A DNA stretch of 64,000 bases from Candidatus Babeliales bacterium (lineage in GTDB: Bacteria > Babelota > Babeliae > Babelales > JANWKD01): NCBI GenBank assembly GCA_963722075.1, contig CAVRJM010000001.1, positions 768,001 to 832,000 of the forward strand, read 5' to 3'. Under the pieces are notes generated by a model. That model ran no database searches. It had not been told where the DNA came from and worked only from the letters and a program-made list of their open reading frames with translations. Position 1 is the stretch's first letter. The number at the start of each line of letters is the position of its first letter. The position numbers and the translations under genes were made by a program. This document shows, piece after piece, positions 17,362 to 59,503 of the stretch.

Positions 17362-17477
17362 ATCTGGCAGTACCTACTTTTCCAGTCCGTCTCCAGACAA
17401 GTATCATCGGCGTTGTAGACTTAACTTCCGTATTCGGGATGGGAACGGGTATTTCCCTACAACTATACCCACCAGAA
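17362..17477 (-). rRNA. rrf: 5S rRNA
   Basis: Reverse complement contains CCCGTTCCCATCCCGAATACGGAAGTTAAG and GCCGATGATACT; ends approximate. Confidence 0.93.
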
Positions 17478-17583
17478 ATTTTTTAGTTCTGATTTGAACA
17501 AACTTTTCAAATTTTTTCTTGTTTCTTGTGAGATATTTGTAACTTAAACTTACTTATGATTACATTACCATAGAAATTTGTAG

Positions 17584-20602
<3,019 letters not shown>

Positions 20603-20754
20603 AAATTTTTATGACTAATCTAATCAATAAGTAACTACAAAATAAATTTGTAGATAATTTAAGTTACAAATATTTCAAAGATCACAAGAAAATTTTTTAA
20701 CATCTTTTAATTTGAGAAAATTTAATTAAATATATTTGAGTTCGTTTTGCAATT

Positions 20755-20830
20755 TGGTGGAGATGAGCGGAATCGAACCGCTGACCTTCCGCGTGCAAAA
20801 CGGACGCTCTACCAGCTGAGCTACATCCCC
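20755..20830 (-). tRNA. tRNA-Ala(TGC)
   Basis: GGGGATGTAGCTCAGCTGGTAGAGCG..TTTGCAC..GGTTCGATTCC..CCACCA; in rRNA spacer. Confidence 0.96.
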
Positions 20831-20901
20831 AAGCATATTAAGCGATACAAGCACTCTTAAACCACTAAAAACAGTTCAATCATTTAAGTGCCCACAGTTT
20901 A

Positions 20902-20978
20902 TGGTGGGCCTAAGTCGACTTGAACGACTGACCTCCCCGTTATCAGCGGGGTGCTCTAACCACCTGAGCTATAGGCCC
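20902..20978 (-). tRNA. tRNA-Ile(GAT)
   Basis: GGGCCTATAGCTCAGGTGGTTAGAGC..CTGATAA..GTTCAAGTC..CCACCA; in rRNA spacer. Confidence 0.96.
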
Positions 20979-21108
20979 GCATTTCAAACTAAAGAGTAAA
21001 CTCATATTTAAATTAAAAATTATACGCTTATGAATCTTATAAAGGAATCTTTCTATCAATAACACCTTAAAACAAGAGCAAGAAACTCTTGCAGTATATT
21101 ACTCCCTC

Positions 21109-22652
<1,544 letters not shown>

Positions 22653-37628: not shown

Positions 37629-37710
37629 CGTCGTTGCGAGCTTGTCGAAGCAATCCAGGTTTTCTTGAAAATTTTAGCCTGGATCACCACGCCTTCGGCT
37701 CGTGACGACG
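37629..37710. repeat. REP/RPE-like palindromic element, copy C
   Basis: CGTCGTTGCGAG..CGAAGCAATCCAGG / CCTGGATCACCACG..CTCGTGACGACG. Confidence 0.8.
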
Positions 37711-42539: not shown

Positions 42540-43091
42540 ATGAGAAAGTTATCTTTATTATTATTGATGGGAATCTTTGCCAGTAATGTTACTGCGATGC
42601 AAACTCATCGGAATAAATCATGGGTACATTCCATACTGTCCTTGCCTATTTTTTATCCTGCTGCTTTTTCATTAGCAGGCATTGGGTACTGTTTATATAA
42701 GCCGGAAAGCGTTAAAGCGAGTTGGCATTATATAAAGGAAATTCCTTTTCCTATTACATGTGCTTTATTAACAGCTACAAGCTGCTTATTAATTGATCGA
42801 TTACTCCATAAAAAAAATTATGAAGTAGATATAAAAAGAATTAATGCTGAGTTTCAAAATCATAAAGATAAAAGAAAAATTGTCAGCAGACGAACAGAAG
42901 TAATTATTACTGAATTCGCAAATCAACTGGCACGCATGGAATCGCGGTTAAATAGACTTGATAAAACGGTGAGCGAACTTGACCAACTAAATAATCTCTA
43001 TAAAGATACTGCAAAAGCACACCCAGGACTCTTTGAAAACAATATGCAGCCAGGCTGGCAAGAAGCATTACAGACAATCACTCAAAATTAG
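42540..43091 (+). CDS. Exported/membrane protein with two hydrophobic segments and a coiled coil (signal + AMQ)
   Basis: GGAGG RBS; hydropathy pattern. Confidence 0.7.
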   Translation: MRKLSLLLLMGIFASNVTAMQTHRNKSWVHSILSLPIFYPAAFSLAGIGYCLYKPESVKASWHYIKEIPFPITCALLTATSCLLIDRLLHKKNYEVDIKRINAEFQNHKDKRKIVSRRTEVIITEFANQLARMESRLNRLDKTVSELDQLNNLYKDTAKAHPGLFENNMQPGWQEALQTITQN

Positions 43092-43115: not shown

Positions 43116-43196
43116 CTGGATCACCACGTCGCTTCGCTCCTCGTGACGACGTGTGTCGAGAAAAAGCTGTCGTTGCGAGCTTGCGAAGCAATCCAG
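43116..43196. repeat. REP/RPE-like palindromic element, copy D
   Basis: CTGGATCACCACG..CTCGTGACGAC / GTCGTTGCGAG..CGAAGCAATCCAG. Confidence 0.8.
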
Positions 43197-43254
43197 TAAT
43201 TAAAATATACTTACAAATATTATAGCCACTCACAATAACGATGGTAGTCACATA

Positions 43255-44520
43255 TCATACCTTTACCACCAATAATGAATCCCAATTAGTAGTATAAGCG
43301 CGCGAACGGTACACCCCTTCTTTTGTACCACGTTCATAACAACCTTGCGATGCGGGGCGCACCATATGATTGCCCCACGTACTATTTAATTCATCCATTA
43401 CCTGCATCACCCGAGAAAATCGTTTATTCTTTTCATTATCAGCAAACAAATCTTGTTGTACCTCAGCGGTGTCAATTAAACCTGAGAGTATCACTCCTGC
43501 CCGTTTATAATTATAGCCCTGCACATAGATCGCTTTTAAAAGTTGATCCATATAGTGCAATAATAAGGGTGTAGAATCAGTTGCGTAGGGAAGCTTTATT
43601 TCTCGATAAGGAGCGTAATACGTTTGCTCATCAAAGCGACCAGTAGCAATAAAAATAGTTACATAATAAGCACATGATTGCTGTTCACGTAATTTTTGTG
43701 CTGCACGCCCTACAAAAAGCGCTAACAATTGCTGCAGCAATTGTTTACTAGTCACGGGCGTTTTAAAGCTTCTGGTGCAGGCTATTGATTGTTTAGGTGG
43801 CGCATATTCTTGTAAATCAATACAAGGAATACCGCGCAATTCCCATACCGTTTTCAAAAATAAGGTATTATTTATTAATGATTTAATACGTTTATCATCA
43901 GCACGCGTAAGATCCAACGCTGTTTTAAAAGCGTATCGTTCTAAAGTACGCGCATAGCGATATCCAATCCCCCACACATCGTTAATGGGAACTTTAAGCA
44001 AGTCATCTGGATTAGCTAATTGTGTACTATCAAAAATGCCATTGTACTGTTGGTTTTTTTTTGCTTGTTTATTAGCGAGCTTAGCACGCGTTTTAGTAGT
44101 AGCAATACCAATTGAAACGGGAATGCCTACCCATTGGTAAATACGTTCTTTCAACATAACGGCAACTTCGTATGCGTTGGCACACACATCAAATTCTATA
44201 AATGCTTCATCAATGGAATAGATCTCAGTACTATATCCCAACCCTTTTATGACACTCATAATGCGATCAGAAATATCAGCATATAAGGTAAAATTAGCAG
44301 AGCAAGCAACACCATTTACTCGTTTAATGAGCGGTTCATACTGAAAATAGGGTGCTCCCATAGGAATACCAACTGCTTTTGCTTCTTGAGAACGCGCTAC
44401 TACACAGCCATCGTTATTTGAAAGCACCACAACCGGGCGCTTTTTGAGCACGGGATTAAAAAGCCGCTCGCACGATACATAAAAATTATTACAGTCAACA
44501 AGCGCAATCAGTTTATTCAT
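43255..44520 (-). CDS. umuC: Y-family DNA polymerase V catalytic subunit
   Basis: LVDCNNFYVSCE, VVLSNNDGC, YSIDEAF, DVWGIG; C-terminal SRAYTTNW. Confidence 0.92.
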   Translation of the reverse strand: MNKLIALVDCNNFYVSCERLFNPVLKKRPVVVLSNNDGCVVARSQEAKAVGIPMGAPYFQYEPLIKRVNGVACSANFTLYADISDRIMSVIKGLGYSTEIYSIDEAFIEFDVCANAYEVAVMLKERIYQWVGIPVSIGIATTKTRAKLANKQAKKNQQYNGIFDSTQLANPDDLLKVPINDVWGIGYRYARTLERYAFKTALDLTRADDKRIKSLINNTLFLKTVWELRGIPCIDLQEYAPPKQSIACTRSFKTPVTSKQLLQQLLALFVGRAAQKLREQQSCAYYVTIFIATGRFDEQTYYAPYREIKLPYATDSTPLLLHYMDQLLKAIYVQGYNYKRAGVILSGLIDTAEVQQDLFADNEKNKRFSRVMQVMDELNSTWGNHMVRPASQGCYERGTKEGVYRSRAYTTNWDSLLVVKV

Positions 44521-44522
44521 AG

Positions 44523-45062
44523 TTAATTTAATAAGCATCCTTCACTAGGATTTTTATCATAATAAATTGCTTTTTCTGTACTCACCTTTTGCAACTCGTT
44601 CACTTGTTCCACCTTGTTCCTCACCATGGTTAATAAACCCAAACAATATATATGGTTAACCCAATTTTCTTCGGCCATTTTTTTAGCAGAAATATAACCG
44701 GCAAATTCATCACCAATGGTACACATTTTTTTCATAAATGCTTCAATATTATATACGCCTATTTTGCCCTCAGTATTAGGGGTTATTTGTATCCACGGAT
44801 ATTCTTTTTTGCCAGTAGAAATGCTAAGTACTGTTTCAAACTCTATTATTTGCCGATTAACAAATTTTTTTTCTTCTTCATTTAGTTGAGATGACTCAAC
44901 TATCTTTTTATTATTATCAATCACATCAGAAACAATTTGATCTATTTGCGGTACTAATTTCTCTATAAATGGATTAGAGGAAGTTATTCGTTTTTCTTCT
45001 TGCTGCATAGCAACACATGAAATATGAATACATATAAGTGCTATATAAATACGTAGCTTCAT
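44523..45062 (-). CDS. Exported hypothetical protein (signal + AMQ) ending in CaaX-like CLLN
   Basis: Paralog of 45094..45534 (EEKxFxN, STGKK, GxYxI). Confidence 0.7.
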   Translation of the reverse strand: MKLRIYIALICIHISCVAMQQEEKRITSSNPFIEKLVPQIDQIVSDVIDNNKKIVESSQLNEEEKKFVNRQIIEFETVLSISTGKKEYPWIQITPNTEGKIGVYNIEAFMKKMCTIGDEFAGYISAKKMAEENWVNHIYCLGLLTMVRNKVEQVNELQKVSTEKAIYYDKNPSEGCLLN

Positions 45063-45093
45063 CGGGGTCTATTCCTTTTTCTAACCGTTAAAA

Positions 45094-45534
45094 TTACTCT
45101 TCTGACGCTAATTCATCAATTCTCTTTTTTAAGTCAACTAATACATCCATTGCTTCTTTGTGCTTCTTTAAGTAGCACCTATCAATAGTCCCACATTTTA
45201 CAAAAAAAACTAGCTTCGCTTCTATCTCAGTTGCCAGCTTCACAATAGTATCAATATCGTATATTCCAGCATTTCCACGGTTTGATAGCTCATCACCATT
45301 AAGCTTATGTTTTTTGCCCGTCGACCGGTTTAATACAAATTTGAATTGAGCTGCTTTCCAGTTGAAAAAATCTTTTTCCTCTTTAAATAAATTAGGTAAC
45401 TTAGCGATCAATGCAGTGTTACTCGCCATTTTTTGTATAATATCATCTATCGAATGTTCTTTCTTGGCAGTCATCCCCATGCTTTCTACCCCTATTGCAA
45501 CTACCAAAAATAACAACACTCTATAGAATCTCAT
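45094..45534 (-). CDS. Exported hypothetical protein
   Basis: Signal peptide; paralog of 44523..45062. Confidence 0.7.
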   Translation of the reverse strand: MRFYRVLLFLVVAIGVESMGMTAKKEHSIDDIIQKMASNTALIAKLPNLFKEEKDFFNWKAAQFKFVLNRSTGKKHKLNGDELSNRGNAGIYDIDTIVKLATEIEAKLVFFVKCGTIDRCYLKKHKEAMDVLVDLKKRIDELASEE

Positions 45535-45554
45535 GCATTACCCTTTTAAAAATA

Positions 45555-46007
45555 TTAAATCACTTTATGAATAACATAAGAAACTACGCCCCAAATTTCA
45601 ATATCCATATCAGGAGTTACTAATAGTGGCTTATATTTTGTATTTGCAGGCACTAAATAAAGACAATCGCCTTGCTGCTCGATACGTTTAACCGTAAATT
45701 CCCCTTGTATTTGCACCACCACTACAGATCCATTAACCACCGGTAATGCTCGATCTACAATTAACATATCGCCTGATTGTATACCAGCTTCTACCATAGA
45801 ATTGCCTTCTACTCGTACAAAAAAAGTAGCTGCAGGATGCTGTATCAAATAGGTATTAAGATCGAGCTTTTGCTCTACGTAATCATCTGCCGGCGAAGGA
45901 AAGCCAGCGGCAATATAGGTTGATAATAAAGGAATAGGAATTTTTATTGACCGATCATCAACATAATATATTTCTACGTTATTTATTTTTTTTATTTTCT
46001 GTTCCAT
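45555..46007 (-). CDS. umuD: DNA polymerase V subunit UmuD (S24 peptidase)
   Basis: AAGFPSPADDY, RVEGNSM, FTVKR. Confidence 0.92.
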   Translation of the reverse strand: MEQKIKKINNVEIYYVDDRSIKIPIPLLSTYIAAGFPSPADDYVEQKLDLNTYLIQHPAATFFVRVEGNSMVEAGIQSGDMLIVDRALPVVNGSVVVVQIQGEFTVKRIEQQGDCLYLVPANTKYKPLLVTPDMDIEIWGVVSYVIHKVI

Positions 46008-46104
46008 ATGAAATATAATAACAAATATTCACATCTCATCAATCTTTAATAAATTGCTTTTACTTACTTGTTTATTAGTATAATTTTTACCAAAGGAGAA
46101 TCTT

Positions 46105-46521
46105 ATGAATAGAATGAAAAAAATTTCTTTATTATTTCCAATCTTATGCAGTTTAAACTATGCTACTGCAATGGAAAAAAGCAAAAGAGAAAAACAGCAA
46201 TCAATACAATTGGATCAATCATGGAAAGGCCAGCAAGAGGCAGTAGTAAAATGTATGACTCAATCTGAAATTCGTAAACAAACTTACAAATTTTATGAGC
46301 ATGGAATATTAAAAGCAACTTTTAATGCCCAAAAAAAGTATGTAATAATTTATCCTACTGGCCAAAAAACAAAGAATAGTGATGAAAAAGAAAAATTAAA
46401 GATAAAATATAAATTCTTTCTCCAAATTATTACTGATATGGCATTAAGCAATGATGATAAAAAATGCCTTGAGGATCTTACTCAACTAAATGAAAAACGC
46501 CATTCTTGTTTAGTAAGTTGA
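46105..46521 (+). CDS. Exported WxGK-family protein (signal + AME) ending in CaaX CLVS
   Basis: AAGGAG RBS; WKGQQ..C..FNA shared with the genes at 56316..58230. Confidence 0.72.
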   Translation: MNRMKKISLLFPILCSLNYATAMEKSKREKQQSIQLDQSWKGQQEAVVKCMTQSEIRKQTYKFYEHGILKATFNAQKKYVIIYPTGQKTKNSDEKEKLKIKYKFFLQIITDMALSNDDKKCLEDLTQLNEKRHSCLVS

Positions 46522-46596
46522 ATTTAATTAAACCCTGTTATTCAACTTGAAATCTTCGAATGCAAAAAAAGTCTTGCTTAATTTATGTAAGTTTAC

Positions 46597-46839
46597 AAAA
46601 GCCGTCGTTGCGAGTTTACGAAGCAATCCAGGCTCAGTTATAAGTTTTTCGTTATACATAAATTTATTAATGTTCACAACCCAATTCCAATACAGATTTA
46701 TATAAATCTGATAAAATCATTAACTTTCTTATTCATCTATTGTTGAGCGATAAAACTTGTAACTGTTGTTTCTATAACCGTATATAATTTCATTTATTTT
46801 AACCTGGATTGCTTCGGCAAGCTCGCAACGACGGCTTTT
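46597..46839. repeat. REP-like inverted pair (about 36 bp arms) enclosing a structured 170-bp spacer, copy E
   Basis: AAAAGCCGTCGTTGCGAG..CGAAGCAATCCAGG (46597..46632) inverted at 46803..46839. Confidence 0.8.
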
Positions 46840-46893
46840 TTAATGCATAATTTTTTAGGCTTTGAATATTAATTCATCGCGCTTTATAAAAAT

Positions 46894-49335
<2,442 letters not shown>

Positions 49336-49357
49336 AAAATTTTCACTAAAAATGTTA

Positions 49358-50314
49358 TTATTTTGCTTCGTGATTATAATATAATTTGTGTCCACCTTGA
49401 GCACAGCATGGTGCCAATGCGTATCGATTATTAGCTAATTCTTTAAAGCGCGGCAACAGACCTTGTACATATGTATAAAAACTGCCCATCGACATTCCTT
49501 CTGCCTCACGTTCTGCTTCTAATTCAATCCTACTTATCAAACAAAGACCCGAAGAATGTCGTTCAATGCTGCAGATTGCATTGGTAGTCTCATGAAGCAT
49601 CTGCACTGCTTTTTTATTTTTGGCTAGAATAGCAATTTCCATAGTATTGAAAGTAGAATCAGCAGGAATATTAGGGCAACATGCTCTATCACGCTGGATC
49701 CCTACTTTATAGCATTCCATCAATACAAACATTAGCTCAGTTGCCCCACTTGGCTTAGTGATTTGAGCAAGAATATGCAATAACGTTTCCCCTTTATTGC
49801 CTTGTTTATTTACGTCACTGATAAAGCCATGTTCAATAACATATTTTAATTTATGAAAATTACGTAAAGCGCATTTATTATTTTCACGAACGGTTTTTTG
49901 TATCGTTTGTATTCGTTCTCGATTAGAATCATTTTCCAGTTTATTGTGCTCAATATCTTCTAGTAAACCTTGGTCATGCTCATTTATAGCTGATTGCCGC
50001 GCGAAGATATGGGTGAGCGTATCTTTATCAGCATAGCAGTTACTTACCACTTCTTGTGCAACTGCTAAAGGAAGTTCGCTTAGAAAAGTAACTGGAATTC
50101 TATCTTCAAGTAACCAAAAACGTATGGTACCTACATTACCCGGCAGTCCTATTGTGCCATTTTCTATTGCAGCGCGAAGCGCTTTTAATTTGGCCTGCTC
50201 AGAAACTTCATGCATACCATATTCATCTACGGTATATTTTGCAGTAAAATCTGATTCCATAGTATAGAGAATACTGCTACTAAGAAATAAGATGCATAAT
50301 GAAAACAAATACAT
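49358..50314 (-). CDS. Exported protein with degenerate ankyrin repeat(s) (signal + TME)
   Basis: DVNKQGNKGETLLHILA. Confidence 0.65.
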   Translation of the reverse strand: MYLFSLCILFLSSSILYTMESDFTAKYTVDEYGMHEVSEQAKLKALRAAIENGTIGLPGNVGTIRFWLLEDRIPVTFLSELPLAVAQEVVSNCYADKDTLTHIFARQSAINEHDQGLLEDIEHNKLENDSNRERIQTIQKTVRENNKCALRNFHKLKYVIEHGFISDVNKQGNKGETLLHILAQITKPSGATELMFVLMECYKVGIQRDRACCPNIPADSTFNTMEIAILAKNKKAVQMLHETTNAICSIERHSSGLCLISRIELEAEREAEGMSMGSFYTYVQGLLPRFKELANNRYALAPCCAQGGHKLYYNHEAK

Positions 50315-50329
50315 AGTAACCCTTTTTAA

Positions 50330-51352
50330 TTAAATAATACCCACTAATTCTACCCAATTATGAATATCTTCGCTAATTCCATATTGAATGTCAGTAAGCA
50401 ATGTAAATAGCTTCTGAGTAAAAGGACCGGTCTGATTATTATTTACCGTGTACGTAGTGCCTTTATATCGTAAACTTCCTACTGGTGTTATAACCGCAGC
50501 CGTACCTGAGCCAAATATCTCAGTAACTGAGCCATTTTTAATACCCTCAACAACTTCATGAATAGTTATTCGCCGTTCTTGGCAGGCAATGCCATTGGCT
50601 TTACACAATTCAAGAACAGATAAGCGGGTAATACCGGGCAAAATTGAATCGGTTAATGAAGGAGTCACCACCACACCATCTATTACAAAGAAAATATTCA
50701 TGGCCCCGACTTCTTCAATATAGTTTCTCTCAATAGGATCGAGCCATAATACTTGCGCACAGCCAACAGCTTGCGCTTCTTTTTGTGCCCGCATACTAGC
50801 AGCATAATTACCACCAGCTTTTGCTTGCCCAACGCCACCTGCTGAAGCACGTGTATAATGTTCGCTCACTAAAATAGAAACCGGATTAAATCCTTGCTCA
50901 TATAACGCACCAACGGGCGATAGAATAATAAAAAATATAAAATCGGTAGAAGGCTTTAGATTAAGTGTTTTTTGAGTAGCAATCATCGTTGGTCGAATAT
51001 ACAGCGAAGTTCCCCTCTCAGTAGGCACCCATTGCTTATCCAGTTCAACAAGCTTTTTAAGCCATGAAAGAACTTCCTCAACATCAATTTCAGGCATACA
51101 CATAATACGCGCAGAATTATTCATACGTGTTAAGTTGTTACGCGGCCTAAATAGCACTATTCGATCATTAGTAGCAGCAAATGCTTTCATACCTTCAAAG
51201 ATTTCTTGCCCGTAATGCAAGCTTGCAACGGCAGGATCCAATTGAAAAGATTGATAAGGTTGAATACGCTTATTATACCACCCTTGCTCAGTATTCCATT
51301 CCATAACAAACATGTGATCAGTAAATTGCGATCCAAATGGTTTATTTTTCAT
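50330..51352 (-). CDS. ilvE: Branched-chain amino acid aminotransferase
   Basis: LHYGQEIFEGMKA, LYIRP, AKAGGNYAAS, EEVGAMN, ILPGITR, GSGTAAVITP. Confidence 0.95.
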   Translation of the reverse strand: MKNKPFGSQFTDHMFVMEWNTEQGWYNKRIQPYQSFQLDPAVASLHYGQEIFEGMKAFAATNDRIVLFRPRNNLTRMNNSARIMCMPEIDVEEVLSWLKKLVELDKQWVPTERGTSLYIRPTMIATQKTLNLKPSTDFIFFIILSPVGALYEQGFNPVSILVSEHYTRASAGGVGQAKAGGNYAASMRAQKEAQAVGCAQVLWLDPIERNYIEEVGAMNIFFVIDGVVVTPSLTDSILPGITRLSVLELCKANGIACQERRITIHEVVEGIKNGSVTEIFGSGTAAVITPVGSLRYKGTTYTVNNNQTGPFTQKLFTLLTDIQYGISEDIHNWVELVGII

Positions 51353-51728
51353 GATAATTGCCCTTTATATTCCTTAGTTTGCACATACATTTGCCAATCA
51401 TACATACAATATTTTTACGAGTCGGAATACTTAAAACAGTAAAAACAGCTTGGTTAAAAATATTAGAAAAAATAAAAATGCCCATAAAAATGCGGCGAAT
51501 ATATAAAGGCCAATGAGCACGGCGTGCACTGCTGGTCATAAAAAACCCAAAGCCACCAATTATGATAAAAACCCCAATTACTATCTTAAGAAGATCCATC
51601 GTATATAGACCGAGTTCATATTCTATTTCACAAAGATCTTGCTCAATGCCCGCTTTTAATAATAAAGGGACAACGAGGCTGGCAATAATTAATAAGAGAC
51701 CTACCATTATCTGATTATTTTTTTTCAT
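51342..51728 (-). CDS. Membrane hypothetical protein
   Basis: Three hydrophobic segments; likely start MKKNNQ after AAGGA. Confidence 0.55.
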   Translation of the reverse strand: MKKNNQIMVGLLLIIASLVVPLLLKAGIEQDLCEIEYELGLYTMDLLKIVIGVFIIIGGFGFFMTSSARRAHWPLYIRRIFMGIFIFSNIFNQAVFTVLSIPTRKNIVCMIGKCMCKLRNIKGNYHEK

Positions 51729-52085
51729 ATAAATCCTTTGTAATTTATAATGAAGATTGCTCATTATTGAACAACCTTCATTATAACTTGTTGTTTACGC
51801 TTTATTAACCATTTTGCCAATAAAAGCAACCCGTTGCAGATAACGATCAACCTGTGCAATTGCTGGCAATTGTCCAACTGCGTTAAATGAATTAAAAATA
51901 ACGATAATAAAAAGAGGTAAAATAATAATAAGAATAAAAAAGATTAGCAGTAGAAGAAAGAAGAATGAGTTATAAGGTTAAAATTCTAATTAATAGTAAT
52001 AATAGCACAAAAAATGACTTTTTGTCAAAAAAAGCAAATTGCAGAACACTGGCCTAATCTTGATAGGTATAAGGCTTGATCTGGG

Positions 52086-52313
52086 CTATATACATTCAAA
52101 AGTTTTATCGTCAGCCTCAGACGCCCATTCACTTAATGTTTGATTTAATGCTTGCATATAAGCTTTATCAAAATTTTTAGTTTTCTTTATAACAATGTTA
52201 TTGTTATCCAGTATTTGAAAAGCAATCGAATCACCTGACTTTAGATCTAAAAAATCACGTATTTCTTTAGGTATGGTCGCTTGAAATTTTGTACTTAATT
52301 TTGAAAATTTCAT
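52086..52313 (-). CDS. AbrB/MazE/SpoVT-family antitoxin-like protein, no adjacent toxin
   Basis: SKLSTKFQATIPKEIRDFLDLKSGD; C-terminal LSEWASEADD. Confidence 0.85.
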   Translation of the reverse strand: MKFSKLSTKFQATIPKEIRDFLDLKSGDSIAFQILDNNNIVIKKTKNFDKAYMQALNQTLSEWASEADDKTFECI

Positions 52314-52360
52314 ATGTTTTACCTTCTATATTAGATAGTATTTAAGTTTATTATATTAAA

Positions 52361-52387
52361 AGTAATAGCAATAATACAGGTATTACT
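52361..52387. promoter_or_regulatory. Inverted repeat upstream of the antitoxin (possible autoregulatory operator)
   Basis: AGTAATA-13 nt-TATTACT. Confidence 0.35.
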
Positions 52388-52601
52388 ATCCATCAAACGC
52401 CTACTAGGCTCTTTATTGTAGCTATTTTATTAAAAAAACTTTTGTAGCAATCCACTTTCATAATTTCTTACAAAAAGCATTTATATATGCTATTTTTTTA
52501 TGGGATTTATTAACATCTAGAAATAGCACAATATATAAAAAATAATCAAACTATTGCTATGCTAGAAGAAAAACTACGTAATAAAGAAAATAAAAAATCT
52601 C

Positions 52602-53423
52602 ATGATGCAACCAATAAGTAATAAATCGTCTTTCATTTATTTATTAGCAACCTGTGTATCAATTCTGCCCACGCTCTTTTCAATGGATAATATAAAACGA
52701 AAGCCTCGTTCTATATCAATGAGTGGATCAGTACTAGATCTTTTTGGCGCACTAGAAATAGATGATAGCCATGAATGTATAACTAAGATGCAAAGAACTA
52801 TACAACCGGATACTGACTTAAATTACCAATCTTCGCAAGGAACTCCCTTAGAGCGAGCTATTGATCTAGAAAAAATTGAAGCAGTTGATTTTCTAATAAG
52901 TAAGGGTAGTAACGCAAACCTTAAAAGCAATTGGTTTAAAGAAACACCACTTCATCGTGCGGCGCGAGCAGGAAATGTTGCGATTATTCAAAAACTTCTT
53001 TGCAAAGTAACAGATCTACAACCCCTTAATAGCGTAGATCAAACACCCCTTCATTTGGCCGTTATATGCTGCCATATAGATGCAGCACGTGAATTTATAA
53101 ATCAAGGGTTGAATGTAAATGCTACTACGAAAAACCTTATGACCCCATTGCATTATGCGTGCATGTTTTCACAAAAACATGCTGAAAGGCACCGGCTCAT
53201 TAATCTATTATTACAAAAGGGAGCATCACTAACTAGTCGTGAAGCACATTATTTTACCCCCTTTGATTTAGCAATCAATGCCGAAAATGTAGAAACAGTA
53301 ACATTTCTTCTGACTAAAATAACCGATCAATCCGTTTTAACAGATTCTTTAAAAATAGCTCAGCAAAAAGGCAACCAAGCCATAATACGCTTATTGCAAG
53401 AAGCTCTCAATAATAAATATTAA
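52602..53423 (+). CDS. Exported ankyrin-repeat protein (signal + SMD)
   Basis: TPLERA, TPLHRA, TPLHLA, TPLHYA and TPFDLA repeats. Confidence 0.9.
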   Translation: MMQPISNKSSFIYLLATCVSILPTLFSMDNIKRKPRSISMSGSVLDLFGALEIDDSHECITKMQRTIQPDTDLNYQSSQGTPLERAIDLEKIEAVDFLISKGSNANLKSNWFKETPLHRAARAGNVAIIQKLLCKVTDLQPLNSVDQTPLHLAVICCHIDAAREFINQGLNVNATTKNLMTPLHYACMFSQKHAERHRLINLLLQKGASLTSREAHYFTPFDLAINAENVETVTFLLTKITDQSVLTDSLKIAQQKGNQAIIRLLQEALNNKY

Positions 53424-53673
53424 TTTTTGCGTTTTAATAATGGGTAAAACATTGTTTTAGAATAAAGCTTATACAGATATATTTTATTATATATATACTT
53501 TAATACCATCTTCATAATAAGCCCTCCTCTACTGTAATGTTTTCATTTCTTTAATTTAATAAAATTATAATTAAAAAATCTATGGCCTGTTCATTATTTC
53601 AAAGTGCTTAACTGTATACTTTTTTTACCAGTTCATGTTATCCCTAAATAATAATGGTTAAAAAGGAGAAAAA

Positions 53674-54054
53674 ATGGCTAAATTACTTGTTATTAATGCA
53701 TTACCAAAAAATTATTACGATGATTGCCATATTGTAGGATCAATTAGTGTTCCACTTGATAAGTTGGAAGCTTATGCACATACTTTAGATAAAAAAACAC
53801 CTATTGTTGTTTATTGCGCTTCATATAGTTGTCCTATTAGCCAAAAAGCATGGCGCATTTTTAATGCCTTAGGATTTACTTCCGTATGGGCTTATGAAGG
53901 GGGAATGGCGGAATGGAGCCAAAAAGATTTCCCCTGTGCCGGTGTATGCCAACAAGAATCTCTTAATCGGCAAGAAAAGCCTCAAAAGCGCGATACACAA
54001 ACCATCAGCGCAGAAGAGTTGCGCAAAAAAATGGAAAATGAGGGCCTTCTATAA
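53674..54054 (+). CDS. Rhodanese-like domain protein
   Basis: HIVGSISVP, IVVYCA, YEGGMAEW. Confidence 0.85.
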   Translation: MAKLLVINALPKNYYDDCHIVGSISVPLDKLEAYAHTLDKKTPIVVYCASYSCPISQKAWRIFNALGFTSVWAYEGGMAEWSQKDFPCAGVCQQESLNRQEKPQKRDTQTISAEELRKKMENEGLL

Positions 54055-54150
54055 ACCACCCCCTCCTAAATGCCGTTGCACTTTATTTATAAAAAAAGCA
54101 GACTGATAGAATAAAAAACATAAAAGTAGAATTATAAGGATAGAAGAGCA

Positions 54151-54780
54151 ATGCAAATACAAAAACAAACTCCCATACTACAAAAAGAGCATGACGAATC
54201 AATTTTAGTAGTTAATAGAACTGAATTTTTTAAGCATGAATCAGCATGGACTGGCCTTAAACAAGTTGATTTTGATGCGTACTTAACGTTAATTCAAGAA
54301 AAAAAAGAGTTCTTACCGCGCCCAACAATGGAAACGGATACTAATTACAAACAAATTATTCCTTATTTAGTTTTTTCTCATGATGATCGTTACTTTTTAA
54401 TGCAACGAACTAACCAGCAAACTGAAAGCCGCTTAAGAAACAAATATTCATTGGGTATTGGCGGCCATATACGCAAAGAAGATTTAACCGATAATTCTAT
54501 TTTTTCATGGGCACAACGAGAATTTCATGAAGAAGTTAATTATAAAGACCATTTTACTATCACCCCGCTTGGTATTTTAAATGATGATTCTAATGCCGTA
54601 GGCCAGGTGCATGTTGGCTTTATATTTTTATTACAAGGAACCACTTCAGACATTTCTATAAAATCTGAGCTTAAAAGCGGGCAACTCGTTTCATTAGATG
54701 AATGCTCGTTCCATTTTAATGATATGGAAAGCTGGAGCCAAATTGTATACGAATTTTTAATGCAGCAAAAAAATCGTTAA
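54151..54780 (+). CDS. NUDIX-family hydrolase (YmaB-like predicted phosphoesterase)
   Basis: YKQIIPY, SLGIGGH, REFHEEV, VGQVH. Confidence 0.85.
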   Translation: MQIQKQTPILQKEHDESILVVNRTEFFKHESAWTGLKQVDFDAYLTLIQEKKEFLPRPTMETDTNYKQIIPYLVFSHDDRYFLMQRTNQQTESRLRNKYSLGIGGHIRKEDLTDNSIFSWAQREFHEEVNYKDHFTITPLGILNDDSNAVGQVHVGFIFLLQGTTSDISIKSELKSGQLVSLDECSFHFNDMESWSQIVYEFLMQQKNR

Positions 54781-54794
54781 AAAAATTCTAAGCA

Positions 54795-55013
54795 ATGTTT
54801 ATTATTATCGTTGGATCAAAGCAACGCAAGATCTTTAAAAAAGCTCTTGTTGATCGATTTTGCCCGATATGTAACCATCAAGGATTACTATTGTATTCTA
54901 TACAGCAATGGGCGACTTTATTTTTAGTTCCTATTTTCCCGGTGAGTAGAAAAAAATTGTATATCAAATGTCCTCATTGCAATAATGGCTATATTGCTTA
55001 CGATACACCGTAA
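54795..55013 (+). CDS. Small zinc-ribbon protein
   Basis: CPIC..WATLFLVPIFP..CPHC. Confidence 0.75.
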   Translation: MFIIIVGSKQRKIFKKALVDRFCPICNHQGLLLYSIQQWATLFLVPIFPVSRKKLYIKCPHCNNGYIAYDTP

Positions 55014-56331
55014 CTTTTTAAAAAAGCGTACAGATTTTTAAATATAAAATAATCAATTGCTTCTTTAACTGTCTGCGCGCCATATTTTTTCTCTAACAAA
55101 TCTCGGTGCTTTAAAAACTCATTCACGATAGTAGGGCATGGCGTTTTTGGCCATTGTACTTTAGGTGGCTGCCCATGGGATTCCACCATATTTGAGACAA
55201 GATGCTCGCCAACTTTTTGTAGATCTTTAGCTGCTTTATTTATTTTTGCTATTTCTTGTTTACAATAATTAACAACATCTGTTTTCCCAGCTTTTTGCGC
55301 AGCTTTTGCTAACTTAGCAAATTCATCGGATGTTTTTCTTAGATGATCATATTTATTGGCGACTGTTTGGAAAAATTTATGATGCAGTACCATATCAATC
55401 GCACCATCAAGTAATACTTCAAGCATCTGTGGCCCCGTCAATTTAAAAAAATCGCCAAAATGCATAGAAATGCCAGCCAATGCAACGAGTGTCAATCCTT
55501 TATTAGCTATTTGAAAAAGCGGCATATTTTTGCAAGCAATACTCGCCATAAAACAAATAGCGGACATCATTTCTGGGCTATAGAGCTCGCTTAAATCAAC
55601 GCCATCGTCCAGTAACTCCTGCATCTTTTGCATGCGGAATTCAGGTTCTGTCGGTATTATTTCTTCCATGGTTAATTGCTCCCATGGCAGTCTAAAATTT
55701 CCTGCGGTTACGATGGAATTAAGTCTATTAACACCATCAATCAATAAGTGCGTATTATGTGCCAATGACTTTGCTGCAAATGAAAGGAAATGATCAGAAT
55801 ATATAAGCGCATTATTAAACTGTTCGTAAATATTTTGTGCTCTTCTATGAACTACATTACCTGCTGCTTGGGCATACTTTAAGAGCTCTCTTCCAAATTC
55901 AATATATTGCGATACAATCGTATTATCATTCTGTTGGGCATGGTTATAGGCAATTTCGCCATATAAGAATGCTGTGGCAGCCAATTCACGTGCTGCAGTT
56001 GTTTGGGCATCAGACCATTGCTCAAGCGCATCCGCACAGAAAGATTTAATAGCGCGGGTGTTTTCGTCACCATCATCAATTAATTGCTCATCAGCAGTTG
56101 ATTATAATGCAGTTCTAAATCAGCAATATGTACAATTGCACTTAAATTGGCAGATAGTGGAGATGCCTCTATCGAAAGAACAGCTGACAAGGAAGTAAGT
56201 TTTGCATGTAATTGGTTTAAAGAGTTTTCAAGTGCTTGGTTTGGATATACAAATTGGTTACATACCATTAAGAAGCTGATCATGTACCCTCTCATATTCA
56301 TATCCTTTTTGTTAATTAAAATAATATACAA
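54998..56331 (-). pseudogene. Hypothetical exported protein apparently split by one frameshift near 56100 (ORFs 56080..56331 and 54998..55984)
   Basis: Frame of the 328-aa ORF stays open upstream of its TTG to about 56102, overlapping the end of the signal-peptide ORF. Confidence 0.5.
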
Positions 56332-56681
56332 TTACTTCTAACGGTTTTTACACCCTTATGATAAAATAAGAGGGCATTAATATTGCATTTCATAATAGTT
56401 TCAAAGCATTCATAACTTAGTTCAATTGAACTTTTATTTTTAAAGAAAGTAGTAACGGTACGATGGGGATAATCAAATAAGGCGATTAATTCTGCATCAA
56501 TGGTCATAAAAGGTACCGCATCTGGAGAAACTTGTGCTGTTTTCATTAATCGATCAATAAATTGTTCTCTTTGTGCCCACCGTTTTTTTACTTTTTTTAT
56601 TTGTGATGAAGTAAGCGGTTCCATTGAATATGAAAAATTACCGTATATTATTAGAAATATAAAAATAGAAAATGATTTCAT
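56316..56681 (-). CDS. Exported WxGK-family-like protein (signal + SME) ending in CaaX CILF
   Basis: Divergent member (WAQRE..LIALFD). Confidence 0.7.
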   Translation of the reverse strand: MKSFSIFIFLIIYGNFSYSMEPLTSSQIKKVKKRWAQREQFIDRLMKTAQVSPDAVPFMTIDAELIALFDYPHRTVTTFFKNKSSIELSYECFETIMKCNINALLFYHKGVKTVRSNCILF

Positions 56682-56752
56682 TAAAATCCCCCTTTCTAAT
56701 GCTTATATAATACCCAATAATAACCATAAGACACAAGAAAACGGAAAAGCCC

Positions 56753-57196
56753 TTAATTAATAATGCATTCTGTTGCTTTGTCCTCATTTCTCACGCTAAC
56801 GTTGTATCTAATGCCTTTTGAATCAGGCAAAGATCGCATGCTTTCGTGGGTAAGAAGCGCTAATTCTTCTTGAGCGAGCGGTGAAGGAGAAATGGCTTTT
56901 AGAAAAATATCAAATTCTATCTCTCTAAAACTTGTTAATTCAGATCCAAAATAAAATATTACCTTGTTTTGAGATGCGTTAAAACATACCTCTAATTGCT
57001 CATTCTTATAATAAACTGGTAGCTTGGCTCGCTGAGCAGATTCCATACATTCCTTGGCAAGCTCCTGCTTACCATTCCAAAGTGCTAATTGATTCAAAAA
57101 AGATTTATCAATTTCTTCGGCATTCATTGAACGTAACGGTAAAAAACCCGTAAGAATCCCCAATAAGATAATAGTTTTAATATTCGTTGCTTGCAT
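56753..57196 (-). CDS. Exported WxGK-family protein (signal + SMN) ending in CaaX-like CIIN
   Basis: WNGKQ..C..FNA; likely start MQATN after AAGGA. Confidence 0.72.
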   Translation of the reverse strand: MQATNIKTIILLGILTGFLPLRSMNAEEIDKSFLNQLALWNGKQELAKECMESAQRAKLPVYYKNEQLEVCFNASQNKVIFYFGSELTSFREIEFDIFLKAISPSPLAQEELALLTHESMRSLPDSKGIRYNVSVRNEDKATECIIN

Positions 57197-57232
57197 ATAC
57201 TTTTTCCTTTCTTTTTTTAGCTTACACAAAAG

Positions 57233-57808
57233 TTAGCTAATGAGACACGTTGCTGCTGCCATTACTGCACTTCCATCATTATATAACTTTTCTTTTGGAT
57301 GAGTATCTCCATTCATTAGATTATTAATTTTAGCTGCACAATCTATTTCAAATAATGCTTGATCTACATCTAACTTTAATGATGCAATCGAATTTATAAT
57401 ATCATCTGTTTCATTTGAAATAACATTTAAGAAAGTATTAAATGGTATTTTGTGATAATCTTCTTGATTATGAAGCGAAATAACATTTTCTTCCGCATTA
57501 AAACTAGCCACTAATTCGTTTGAATTATAGGTAAATGGTTCTCCAGTAGCGCGCGCAAAATCCATACAAAGAATAGCAAGTTTAGTTTTACCATTCCATA
57601 CAATTAACTGCTTTAATAAATATGTATCATGCATTATTGGTAAATCACCCATAGCCACAGCCGTTAATGCTGACGTATCCTCATCAGCCGTAACCATCAA
57701 TGATAACATATTCTCGTCTTTTTTTTCTTCCTGCTCCATAGAAAACAAATAGGAATAATTGAATGTACCACACAACACAATAACCATTCTAATCTTTTTA
57801 GCTGCCAT
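57233..57808 (-). CDS. Exported WxGK-family protein (signal + SME) ending in CaaX CLIS
   Basis: WNGKT..C..FNA; start uncertain. Confidence 0.72.
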   Translation of the reverse strand: MAAKKIRMVIVLCGTFNYSYLFSMEQEEKKDENMLSLMVTADEDTSALTAVAMGDLPIMHDTYLLKQLIVWNGKTKLAILCMDFARATGEPFTYNSNELVASFNAEENVISLHNQEDYHKIPFNTFLNVISNETDDIINSIASLKLDVDQALFEIDCAAKINNLMNGDTHPKEKLYNDGSAVMAAATCLIS

Positions 57809-57834
57809 GCTAGTTCTTTTGCTATTCAAAGAAA

Positions 57835-58230
57835 TTAATATAAATTACAATTCCATCCGGTTCGTGCAGGCGCTTCAGATTTTTCTTCTTTTTTAGCTTC
57901 TTTCTTTCCAGAAATATCATCGAGAAATTTTAATAAAGACTCATAGCTCATTGTTTCATCACCTAAAGATGAATTTAATCTCACGCTATCTTTATCAAAA
58001 ATAGTTGTAAATTTTTCTTGTTGAAACTCAATGCGTTTACCTGTTTCAATAACCTGGTTGCGATAATCGAGAATAATATCTTGTTTACCTTTCCATGAAT
58101 CGAGTAAAAAAACTAATCGCAATGCCTCAAAATCTACTTGACTCGTACGCCCTTGCTCCTGTTCCATACCAAACATGGAAGCCACGAATAATATTCCCAA
58201 TAGATTTCCTAAAAATAATTTCTTTATCAT
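57835..58230 (-). CDS. Exported WxGK-family protein (signal + GME) ending in CNLY
   Basis: WKGKQ; AAGGAG RBS. Confidence 0.72.
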   Translation of the reverse strand: MIKKLFLGNLLGILFVASMFGMEQEQGRTSQVDFEALRLVFLLDSWKGKQDIILDYRNQVIETGKRIEFQQEKFTTIFDKDSVRLNSSLGDETMSYESLLKFLDDISGKKEAKKEEKSEAPARTGWNCNLY

Positions 58231-58245
58231 ACAAACTCCTTTGTA

Positions 58246-59340
58246 TTATTGTATATATTTAATACGCCAACCGGCTTCCATATAGTTCTTAACTTCAGTA
58301 AATTTTTCTTTAAATGCGGCATCTAATTCAGTTAATCTAAATGTTCCCTGCGCCGTTCTAATCCACGGATCAATGCCACGGAATTTATTTTTAGCGAGCA
58401 TATCATAATCAGCAGAATCAACACAGTTAATCAATTCTTTAATATGTAATGCTTTTTGTAGATTTTTTTGCAAGAGTTCATCATCTGAATTAATTAATTT
58501 TTCCCATACCATTTCATCAACTGAAAAATGAATCTCATCGCTAGTGATTAAACCAATTGCCAATGCTTGTTTTAAAACAGCTGCCATAATCTCATTGGCA
58601 ACAAAACTATTATAATTATTCCATCCATTTTCATTTTGCATAAAATAGAATGGAATTAAAGCAAATTTTCGCGCATATTCAATGTCAGTAAATATCCACG
58701 CACCTTGTTCTACAATCAAATGATCCAATATATTCTTAATATCTTCTTCAGTAAGCAACTGCTCTACCAAGGCACCTTGCAAATTATATTCTAAACGATC
58801 GGCGCATAATTCAGGCAATTTTTGCTCTAACAATATAAACCCGTCATTCTTATGTAAAATATCATTCACCTTAATATCGTGTTTTTTTAGTAACGCAGGG
58901 ATCGAAGTATTATTAATAAAATGTAAATGATTATGATCTTGATAAGAATCACCCATTTGAGAAACATTAAATAAAAAATCGCCACCATGAGAAAATACCG
59001 TATGAGAAACATCATGTAATAAACCAGCGATTTGTTCATGTAACGAGGCACCGTATTTGCGCAACAACACAAAAACGCCTATTGAATGGTCAAAACGATT
59101 GTAATCTATTTTTTTAATAGTGTAATAATTGGTACCATATTGGCGTATTTTTTTAAGCCGTTGTACATAGGAATCGTTAATCAACTCAATTAATACCGGC
59201 TCATTAATTAAAAAATCACCGTAAATAGTTTCTAGTAATAACGATGGCTTTTGTTCATGTTCGTACGAAGCTTTTATTAAAATACCCATCACAAAAAATA
59301 AACCCATTATGAATAGTATTCGTGAACTTTTTCTTATCAT
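58246..59340 (-). CDS. HD-domain phosphohydrolase (dNTP triphosphohydrolase-like) with N-terminal signal/anchor
   Basis: QRLKKIRQ, RFDHSIGV, LLHDVSH, ADRLEY; likely start MIRKSS. Confidence 0.82.
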   Translation of the reverse strand: MIRKSSRILFIMGLFFVMGILIKASYEHEQKPSLLLETIYGDFLINEPVLIELINDSYVQRLKKIRQYGTNYYTIKKIDYNRFDHSIGVFVLLRKYGASLHEQIAGLLHDVSHTVFSHGGDFLFNVSQMGDSYQDHNHLHFINNTSIPALLKKHDIKVNDILHKNDGFILLEQKLPELCADRLEYNLQGALVEQLLTEEDIKNILDHLIVEQGAWIFTDIEYARKFALIPFYFMQNENGWNNYNSFVANEIMAAVLKQALAIGLITSDEIHFSVDEMVWEKLINSDDELLQKNLQKALHIKELINCVDSADYDMLAKNKFRGIDPWIRTAQGTFRLTELDAAFKEKFTEVKNYMEAGWRIKYIQ

Positions 59341-59503
59341 AGCTGTTTCCTTTACGATAATATGATTTATTTCTATTAAAAATGAATAGTATAATAAACA
59401 AAAGCGATTCATACAAATTTCTTGTATTATTGCATAAAACTATTTTTATTATGGTATATATAAGAAATATAGTTACCATCTTTATTTTAGTAGAGAAATT
59501 ATT

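Follow-up and report, generated by a model that had tools for sequence, protein, structure and literature searches.

Why a bacterium should encode signal-bearing proteins that end in a box suited to eukaryotic prenyltransferases is the question raised by six genes at 44523–58230 of a 64,000-nucleotide stretch (the window) of a Candidatus Babeliales bacterium genome (GCA_963722075.1; contig CAVRJM010000001.1, positions 768,001 to 832,000). Each encodes a candidate exported protein with a cysteine four residues from its end (Cys(-4)), in a box of the Cys-a1-a2-X (CaaX) type by which the protein is named here. Translation of the open reading frames (ORFs) confirmed all six C-termini, and likewise the hydrophobic N-terminus and following xM[EQN] motif that the earlier note had described on all six (Table 1; proteins with such a signal are termed xME below). 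The six are not independent cases, as five (CLVS, CILF, CIIN, CLIS and CNLY) form one divergent paralog family, the W-G-K family; the CLLN protein does belong, as had been stated, to a separate family whose other member is box-less (33% identity over 73 aa). The position 46105 given for CLVS marks the start of its gene rather than its C-terminus, where the box itself is present. The boxes on these candidate exported proteins have likely been selected for prenylation by the host, a reading held with higher confidence for the family and lower confidence for CLLN, and supported because the box is kept on unrelated tails, follows farnesyltransferase (FTase)-type residue usage and is enriched in a specific class of proteins.

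Enrichment of the box among xME proteins

Genome-wide counts drew on 1383 genes (70 aa or longer), called in this genome (G000; 1.47 Mb, 34.7% GC, 99% complete) by a simple hexamer model that misplaces some starts. A strict box (C-[ILV]-[ILV]-X-stop), chosen after the list of Cys(-4) proteins had been inspected, was found in 8/241 proteins of the xM[EQNDHK] signal class relative to 0.17 expected (P=2e-11), and in 1/423 other signal-bearing, 0/151 membrane and 0/568 cytosolic proteins, with signal classes assigned by a hydropathy rule and not by SignalP. The same pattern at any other offset occurred at most once in the xME class. Collapsing the carriers to four independent groups gave P=3e-5, and the two groups outside the window gave P=0.013 when counted alone. 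For Cys(-4) regardless of the neighbouring residues, the genome-wide enrichment that had been proposed as a check was seen relative to all other proteins (10/241 vs 17/1142, p=0.017) and was borderline relative to cytosolic proteins (11/568, p=0.089); Cys(-10) was equally frequent in the xME class (10/241). Cytosolic counts are raised by ribosomal protein S8, a housekeeping CaaX look-alike that ends in C[ST]VW in this genome (C1:658677) and in four relatives.

Seven related genomes of 1.2–1.9 Mb were sampled at 400 kb each (20 separate 20-kb pieces, with genes crossing an end lost) using a looser box, C-x-[ILVM]-X, that was fixed after four slices had been inspected and before the last three. 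Across three genomes of the same taxonomic family, the looser box ended 10/190 xME proteins (0.93 expected) vs 3/572 non-exported proteins (2.42 expected); within these totals, the fresh slice (G004) contributed 4/82 xME proteins (0.62 expected). Removal of W-G-K family members and duplicates from the same-family slices left six independent groups (P=4e-4). The trait is strong in this taxonomic family and is sporadic at most elsewhere within the sample. Among 12 boxed proteins outside the W-G-K family that were scanned, three were ankyrin and two were WD40 proteins, and the box appears to behave as a portable tail that individual proteins of the ankyrin and WD40 families also carry. A coiled xME protein of ~80 aa ending in CPCxxCVLW is conserved in three genomes (C4:15299-15535 in G000, L033:10248-10487 and L162:14039-14293); this end may be a CaaX box or may be a metal site.

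Conservation and type of the box

The five W-G-K proteins of the window are 16–28% identical to the first in an alignment, with W, F and the terminal C common to all; blastp within the five joined only CLVS, CIIN and CLIS, and a self-seeded, core-only hidden Markov model (HMM) scored them at 66–84 bits. Comparison of the CLLN protein with the family by hhalign gave 1.5%, and a homologue search for it retrieved only this protein and its paralog. A five-member profile matched in 2/40 relatives, both of the same taxonomic family; the alignments reached no further than position 113 of 136 and so did not take in the box, and all of the four homologues found (4/4) ended in Cys(-4), with boxes CIIS, CILN, CCMQ and CSIQ on the tails KKSKKKRCIIS, RKRKRKCCCILN, EKKKCCMQ and KVLKKKCSIQ, respectively. 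A ten-member profile matched strongly in 3/4 same-family genomes and weakly in 4/196 others; three of these four weak matches were dropped as the signal peptide alone aligned, and the fourth (L097, E 8e-5), a possible family member, ends in CNLM. In three same-family relatives, 9/11 profile matches had Cys(-4), one ended in CCCCFSCW and one was box-less. When the five-member alignment was used in a word-index search, only proteins of this genome were returned; 1.84 billion representatives searched by HMM yielded 78 cluster representatives of the W-G-K family. Cys(-4) was kept in 43/69 non-seed members, a proportion biased upward because the profile included the tail; rescoring with the core-only HMM gave Cys(-4) in 29/50 non-seed members at a threshold of at least 20 bits.

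The 51 boxed members carry 41 distinct boxes in which a1 is unconstrained (I 15, S 10, L 7), a2 is L, I or V in 46, and X is Q in 17, S in 15 (32 for Q and S together), Y in 7 and N in 3. Their tails span 19–93 residues and are 9% identical over the 20 residues ahead of the box, consistent with the earlier description of tails that vary while the position of the Cys stays. An ancestral tail copied by duplication and without function, its box owed to chance and paralogy, could be proposed from the fact that five of the six belong to one tandem array of paralogs, from the borderline count of plain Cys(-4) relative to cytosolic proteins, and from the CLLN tail, which is encoded across the upstream start region of umuC and has no homologue to compare. 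However, the box persists over tails of this divergence, a1 and X change among permitted residues, and unrelated families in relatives carry boxes as well, which largely refutes this explanation for the family and leaves only CLLN to it; overall, its chance of being correct is minute.

Tail cysteines form a sharp peak, with 43 at -4 vs 6 at -3, 15 at -5 and 18 at -6. This peak, together with the constraint on a2 and X, argues against the view that these are Cys-rich tails serving host S-acylation (palmitoylation) or disulfide or metal sites and that their CaaX look is incidental, as does the presence of a single tail Cys, at -4, in each of the window proteins. The observations that favour such a view are the extra Cys in 20/51 boxed members, ends such as CCCCFSCW or CCSCFFFCCH that lack Cys(-4), and the CVLW proteins, in which the box lies within CPCxxC clusters. 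Palmitoylation, a known second signal, would more likely add to prenylation than replace it, and either modification would place the proteins in the host cytosol; the S-acylation or metal-site explanation is considered improbable. A second signal of at least three K/R or an extra Cys just upstream was present in 33/51 boxed members vs 50/231 box-less xME proteins. After prenylation, membrane binding is stabilised by a basic patch or by palmitoylation (PMC9141697).

The boxes were compared with yeast screens of CXXX sequences in which 489/8000 (~6%) were prenylation-positive and 508 negative (PMC9231725). By hand tally against table S1 of that study, 27/51 family boxes are in the positive set and 0/51 in the negative column, an overlap for which a binomial figure is overstated because kin are not independent. 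Four further family boxes are CIIS, the box of yeast Ras2 (PMC9231725). Cys(-4) ends of this genome fell in the positive set in 6/10 xME vs 0/17 non-xME proteins, and four of the window six (CLVS, CILF, CIIN and CLIS) are in it; the set reflects yeast enzymes, which may differ from those of a protist host. The support vector machine (SVM) of the same study passes all six window boxes, with a background pass rate of 33%. As X = A, M, S or Q leads to farnesylation and L, I or F to geranylgeranylation (PMC9141697; for the preference of geranylgeranyltransferase I (GGTase-I), PMC11304957), the lipid assignment made earlier from X applies in part: only CILF points to geranylgeranylation, and X in the family is mostly Q or S. 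CNLY is less odd than its earlier description as non-canonical, with a2 = L and with X = Y found in 7/51 family boxes, yet it lies outside the positive set and is PrePS-negative.

Handling of the terminal Cys within the bacterium was also considered, in which its own Rce1-like (CPBP) proteases would treat the Cys as a sorting or lipidation signal and the proteins would be anchored at the bacterial surface. Two Rce1-like proteins are present in G000, the boxed proteins pass the periplasm, and Rce1-like myxosortases act on C-terminal Cys signals in bacteria (bioRxiv 2023.06.07.544157); in MYXO-CTERM proteins, as here, a C-terminal Cys signal is found on exported bacterial proteins where Rce1-like proteases are present. 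However, the known signals consist of a motif, a transmembrane helix and an Arg cluster, whereas here neither helix nor Arg cluster follows the Cys, which is four residues from the end, and 0/51 boxed members have a hydrophobic stretch of 19 residues within their final 40 aa. The lipobox pattern was matched by only 1/78 members. Rce1-like genes occur in 11/14 control genomes, and the fixed Cys(-4), FTase-type a2 and X and upstream basic patch likewise argue against bacterial processing, as does the lack of a G000 match to prenyltransferase PF01239 (alpha) or PF00432 (beta), a search in which the controls were weak or silent. Processing by the bacterium is thus very unlikely. A 1123-aa membrane protein with an Rce1-like (CPBP) domain is encoded at C1:732227-735598.

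Host prenylation, as put forward in the earlier note, passes the sequence tests of class enrichment, homologue conservation, FTase-type a2 and X and overlap with the experimental set, and no bacterial prenyltransferase match was found, with weak or silent controls. Several observations weigh against it. Cys(-4) is absent from 26/69 non-seed family members, some of them possibly partial or weak matches, and the frequent X = Y, N or W is not textbook. The experimental positive set does not list CLLN or CNLY, and the PrePS prediction proposed as a check gave a divided result when run in H-Ras context, with CILF, CLIS and CLVS passing and CIIN, CLLN and CNLY failing. The window six have 0–2 K/R and no additional Cys ahead of the box. 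The hydropathy-based signal classes and the borderline cytosolic comparison also count here, as do four WD40-type tandem paralogs of G000, one of which ends in CLLS and three of which lack Cys(-4). In the four other taxonomic families, the looser box ended 2/211 xME proteins (0.92 expected; both in G180), an enrichment that is not significant, 4/375 other signal-bearing proteins (1.18 expected) and 8/851 non-exported proteins (2.65 expected), the last including four copies of ribosomal S8 and two of one other orthologue. PF00432 was silent in every control genome, so the absence of the beta subunit is not demonstrated, and for B. massiliensis, which grows in a vacuole, type II export would by itself take proteins no further than the vacuole lumen.

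Domain architecture and genomic setting

Models of the family domain predicted from 10 and 73 sequences reached mean predicted local distance difference test (pLDDT) scores of 71.0 and 86.5, and show a predicted compact alpha/beta domain of ~80 residues in which two helices and a four-strand sheet are followed by a closing helix. The tail is of low confidence and disordered in both (pLDDT <50 at residues 118-143/147 of the first and 91-100/102 of the second, the model with pLDDT 86.5 that covers the CILF protein), placing the box on a predicted accessible, unstructured tail. Because the residues conserved in the domain (W, G, A, F, D, V, Y) are small or hydrophobic and comprise no catalytic set, it is weakly suggested to be a binding module rather than an enzyme. 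No Pfam match at cut-off was obtained for the six, no Pfam family was common to more than 1/73 members, and a PDB sequence search gave 0 matches for the family domain. Foldseek returned nothing at E<=0.001 from the PDB with the first model or from viral structures with the second, and the best ESM Atlas matches (0.88; pilotin-like, 0.79) are leads only. Likenesses to YkuJ (VIA-align Z 5.7) and to the type VII secretion system chaperone SIR_0168, the best VIA-align match (Z 6.4, rmsd 3.3, 74 aligned; below the line for common arrangements), were both treated as a common arrangement. The lack of a fold match does not make the fold new. In P0008, P0012 and P0039 the family domain occurs as 4–5 tandem copies in box-less proteins, and is also fused to a MYND finger.

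Table 1 Boxed genes of the window and adjoining features
Feature	Coordinates	Strand	N-terminal signal	Length (aa)	C-terminus	Remarks
CLLN protein	44523..45062	-	signal+AMQ	179	...SEGCLLN	ORF translation; orphan outside W-G-K family
CLLN paralog	45094..45534	-		146	ASEE	Box-less; ORF translation and blastp
CLVS protein	46105..46521	+	signal+AME	138	...RHSCLVS	W-G-K family; convergent with leuS
CILF protein	56316..56681	-	signal+SME	121	...RSNCILF	W-G-K family; sole GGTase-I-type box of six
CIIN protein	56753..57229	-	signal+SMN	147 from likely start ATG 57196	...ATECIIN	W-G-K family
CLIS protein	57233..57829	-	signal+SME	191 from likely start 57808	...AATCLIS	W-G-K family
CNLY protein	57835..58230	-	signal+GME	131	...GWNCNLY	W-G-K family; ORF translation
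HD-domain gene	58246..59412	-				Context only; directly upstream of four-gene array; 38% to L002:2495-3016

The box-coding ends were compared with other contigs, a check that carries weight given the assembly-type frameshifts in adjacent leuS. Short-read contigs match the CILF, CIIN and CNLY ends exactly (records 5-7 of run X1, which may be the source sample), and the CLIS end is covered without differences by X5 record 26, from another study, and with one differing letter, outside the box, by X2 record 15. No short-read contig covering the CLLN end was among the matches listed. The CLVS end recurs on contig C3, in a copy of 94% identity. In the window, leuS (46894-49328) is in several pieces, which are likely due to assembly errors since the C3 copy is intact (838 aa) and short-read contigs indicate single inserted letters at 47136 and 48524. 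Contig C3 (21.5 kb) is an alternative version of window 46048-56090, 83-96% identical with extra genes, and probably represents a second strain or haplotype. A 328-aa ORF (window 54998-55984) corresponds to the C-terminal part of an xME protein of 1193 aa on this contig (C3:674-6368); small genes and alternative C-terminal segments come after the gene for the longer protein, an arrangement that resembles a polymorphic cassette array.

Four family genes follow the HD-domain gene in the window, where the CLVS gene faces leuS; in the relative G004, three family members are flanked by the HD-domain gene on one side and by a convergent leuS on the other. From this difference in arrangement around the two genes, one ancestral array was likely split by inversion. 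The CLLN gene and its paralog separate the usual pair umuD (45555-46007) and umuC (43255-44538), within window 43255-46007. Repeats of ~35-48 bp in both orientations are present at 37629-37661, 43161-43207, 46593-46632 and 46795-46843, two of them between the CLVS gene and leuS, and similar pieces are found in unrelated contigs. A complete rRNA operon with two spacer tRNAs is located at 17362-22652.

Proposed export route and significance

Among 247 G000 proteins with a Met after the hydrophobic leader, A, S or G precedes the Met in 180, and the residue after it is E, Q, N or D in 173/247 (70%) vs 23% after internal Met, a comparison in which the leader-Met filter favours hydrophilic following residues. 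The same Met-E/Q/N/D bias, with E or D leading, is seen in G001, G003, G022 and G037; xM[EQND] genes of the window are at 42540, 44523, 46105, 49358, 52602 and 56316-58230. The preceding A/S/G and the following E/Q/N/D fit a signal-peptidase cut before the Met. The suggestion that xME is a translocation tag stays tentative: boxes do concentrate in the xME class, but xM itself resembles a signal-peptidase site. Met followed by D, N, E or Q is the substrate set of NatB, which acts co-translationally (PMC11735805), and a NatB link to the xM proteins is a lead only.

With controls ringing, G000 had no match to FHIPEP, VirB4 or VipB (type III, VirB-type IV and type VI secretion, respectively; Dot/Icm genes were not searched). 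Two secretin genes are present, in line with the pair of gspD copies described for TM6 (PMC4776705). Protists are the hosts of all Babelota in culture (PMC12172432). Type II is the sole secretion system reported for B. massiliensis, which multiplies inside a vacuole (PMC4378268), and C. destructans lies in the host cytoplasm and appears to shed outer-membrane vesicles (PMC6561590). The proposed route would begin with Sec export and signal-peptidase cleavage just ahead of the Met in xM[EQND], followed by passage of the outer membrane, most likely by type II, with any vacuole membrane crossed otherwise. In the host cytosol, FTase (GGTase-I for CILF) would lipidate the Cys, and Rce1 trimming and methylation would follow, tethering the protein to the cytosolic face of host membranes. 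Membrane residence in many relatives would be stabilised by a K-Ras-like basic patch or a palmitoylatable Cys, and would be weaker or reversible for the window six, which lack a second signal. In the weakest step, the small domain would most likely bind proteins as an adaptor, at the vacuole of the bacterium or at host membranes close by.

Delivery by outer-membrane vesicles or bacterial lysis, with no dedicated route and xME as a signal-peptidase site only, is compatible with host prenylation and differs from the proposed route only at the outer-membrane or vacuole crossing. The vesicles of C. destructans, the degenerate outer membranes of Babeliales (PMC4776705) and the frequency of A/S/G ahead of the Met fit such delivery, whereas the enrichment of boxes in xME proteins (9/241) and not in other signal-bearing proteins (3/423, 1.4 expected) indicates that xME marks a distinct destination class; undirected delivery is therefore a possible but doubtful account of this step. 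A broader proposal, that Babeliales send hundreds of Sec proteins to the protist cytosol without a needle, is similarly tentative; signal cleavage would bare a Met-E/Q/N/D N-terminus of the kind that eukaryotic NatB acetylates and protects, and a portable CaaX tail would draw in host prenylation.

Judged from sequence, the boxed proteins would work like known host-prenylated bacterial effectors, all of which come from injecting pathogens. Salmonella SifA and GtgE are injected by type III secretion; SifA reportedly undergoes host prenylation and S-acylation, and GtgE is said to be prenylated by the host. PelC and PelE are reportedly CaaX effectors of Legionella. Host prenylation positions the Salmonella effectors on host membranes, as is proposed here, but these are single proteins of an animal pathogen. 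For Legionella, host prenylation is established for the effector AnkB (PMC2916131), and LseA is a further CaaX effector (PMC7542358). The Legionella CaaX effectors are injected by Dot/Icm type IV secretion, whereas the Babelota proteins have N-terminal signal peptides, and, unlike the Legionella effectors, their main carrier is an expanded orphan family without Pfam, PDB or fold match in which prenylation is predicted. Tails in relatives such as HKKSKKKRCIIS and RKRKRKCCCILN share the Ras-type layout of CaaX with a polybasic stretch or palmitoylated Cys, but here on bacterial signal-peptide proteins without a GTPase domain, and without the second signal in the window six. New relative to these systems are the phylum, a route that uses signal peptides, and an orphan family that has expanded around the tag. 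No account of CaaX boxes or of the xM motif in Babelota was found in the literature covered (supplements and subscription papers outside scope), and the main texts of PMC6561590 and PMC4378268 mention neither prenyl nor CAAX (supplements outside scope).

Babelota genomes are rich in signal-peptide orphans whose destination has been assumed and not demonstrated. A motif that is readable only by eukaryotic cytosolic enzymes, and that is under selection, would provide sequence-level evidence for arrival in the host cytosol, and prenylation could report translocation without genetics in the bacterium. Under the broader, tentative proposal of needle-free delivery, the CaaX proteins would be a host-only reporter of an undescribed effector route, from Sec and type II to the cytosol, across an intracellular phylum. 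If host prenylation is correct, its known reach among effectors would widen beyond type III and type IV injectors to take in a Sec-dependent route in a further phylum. The W-G-K proteins would then represent a new effector domain family, and its box spectrum, with Q, S, Y and N at X, may mirror the prenyltransferase specificity of the host.

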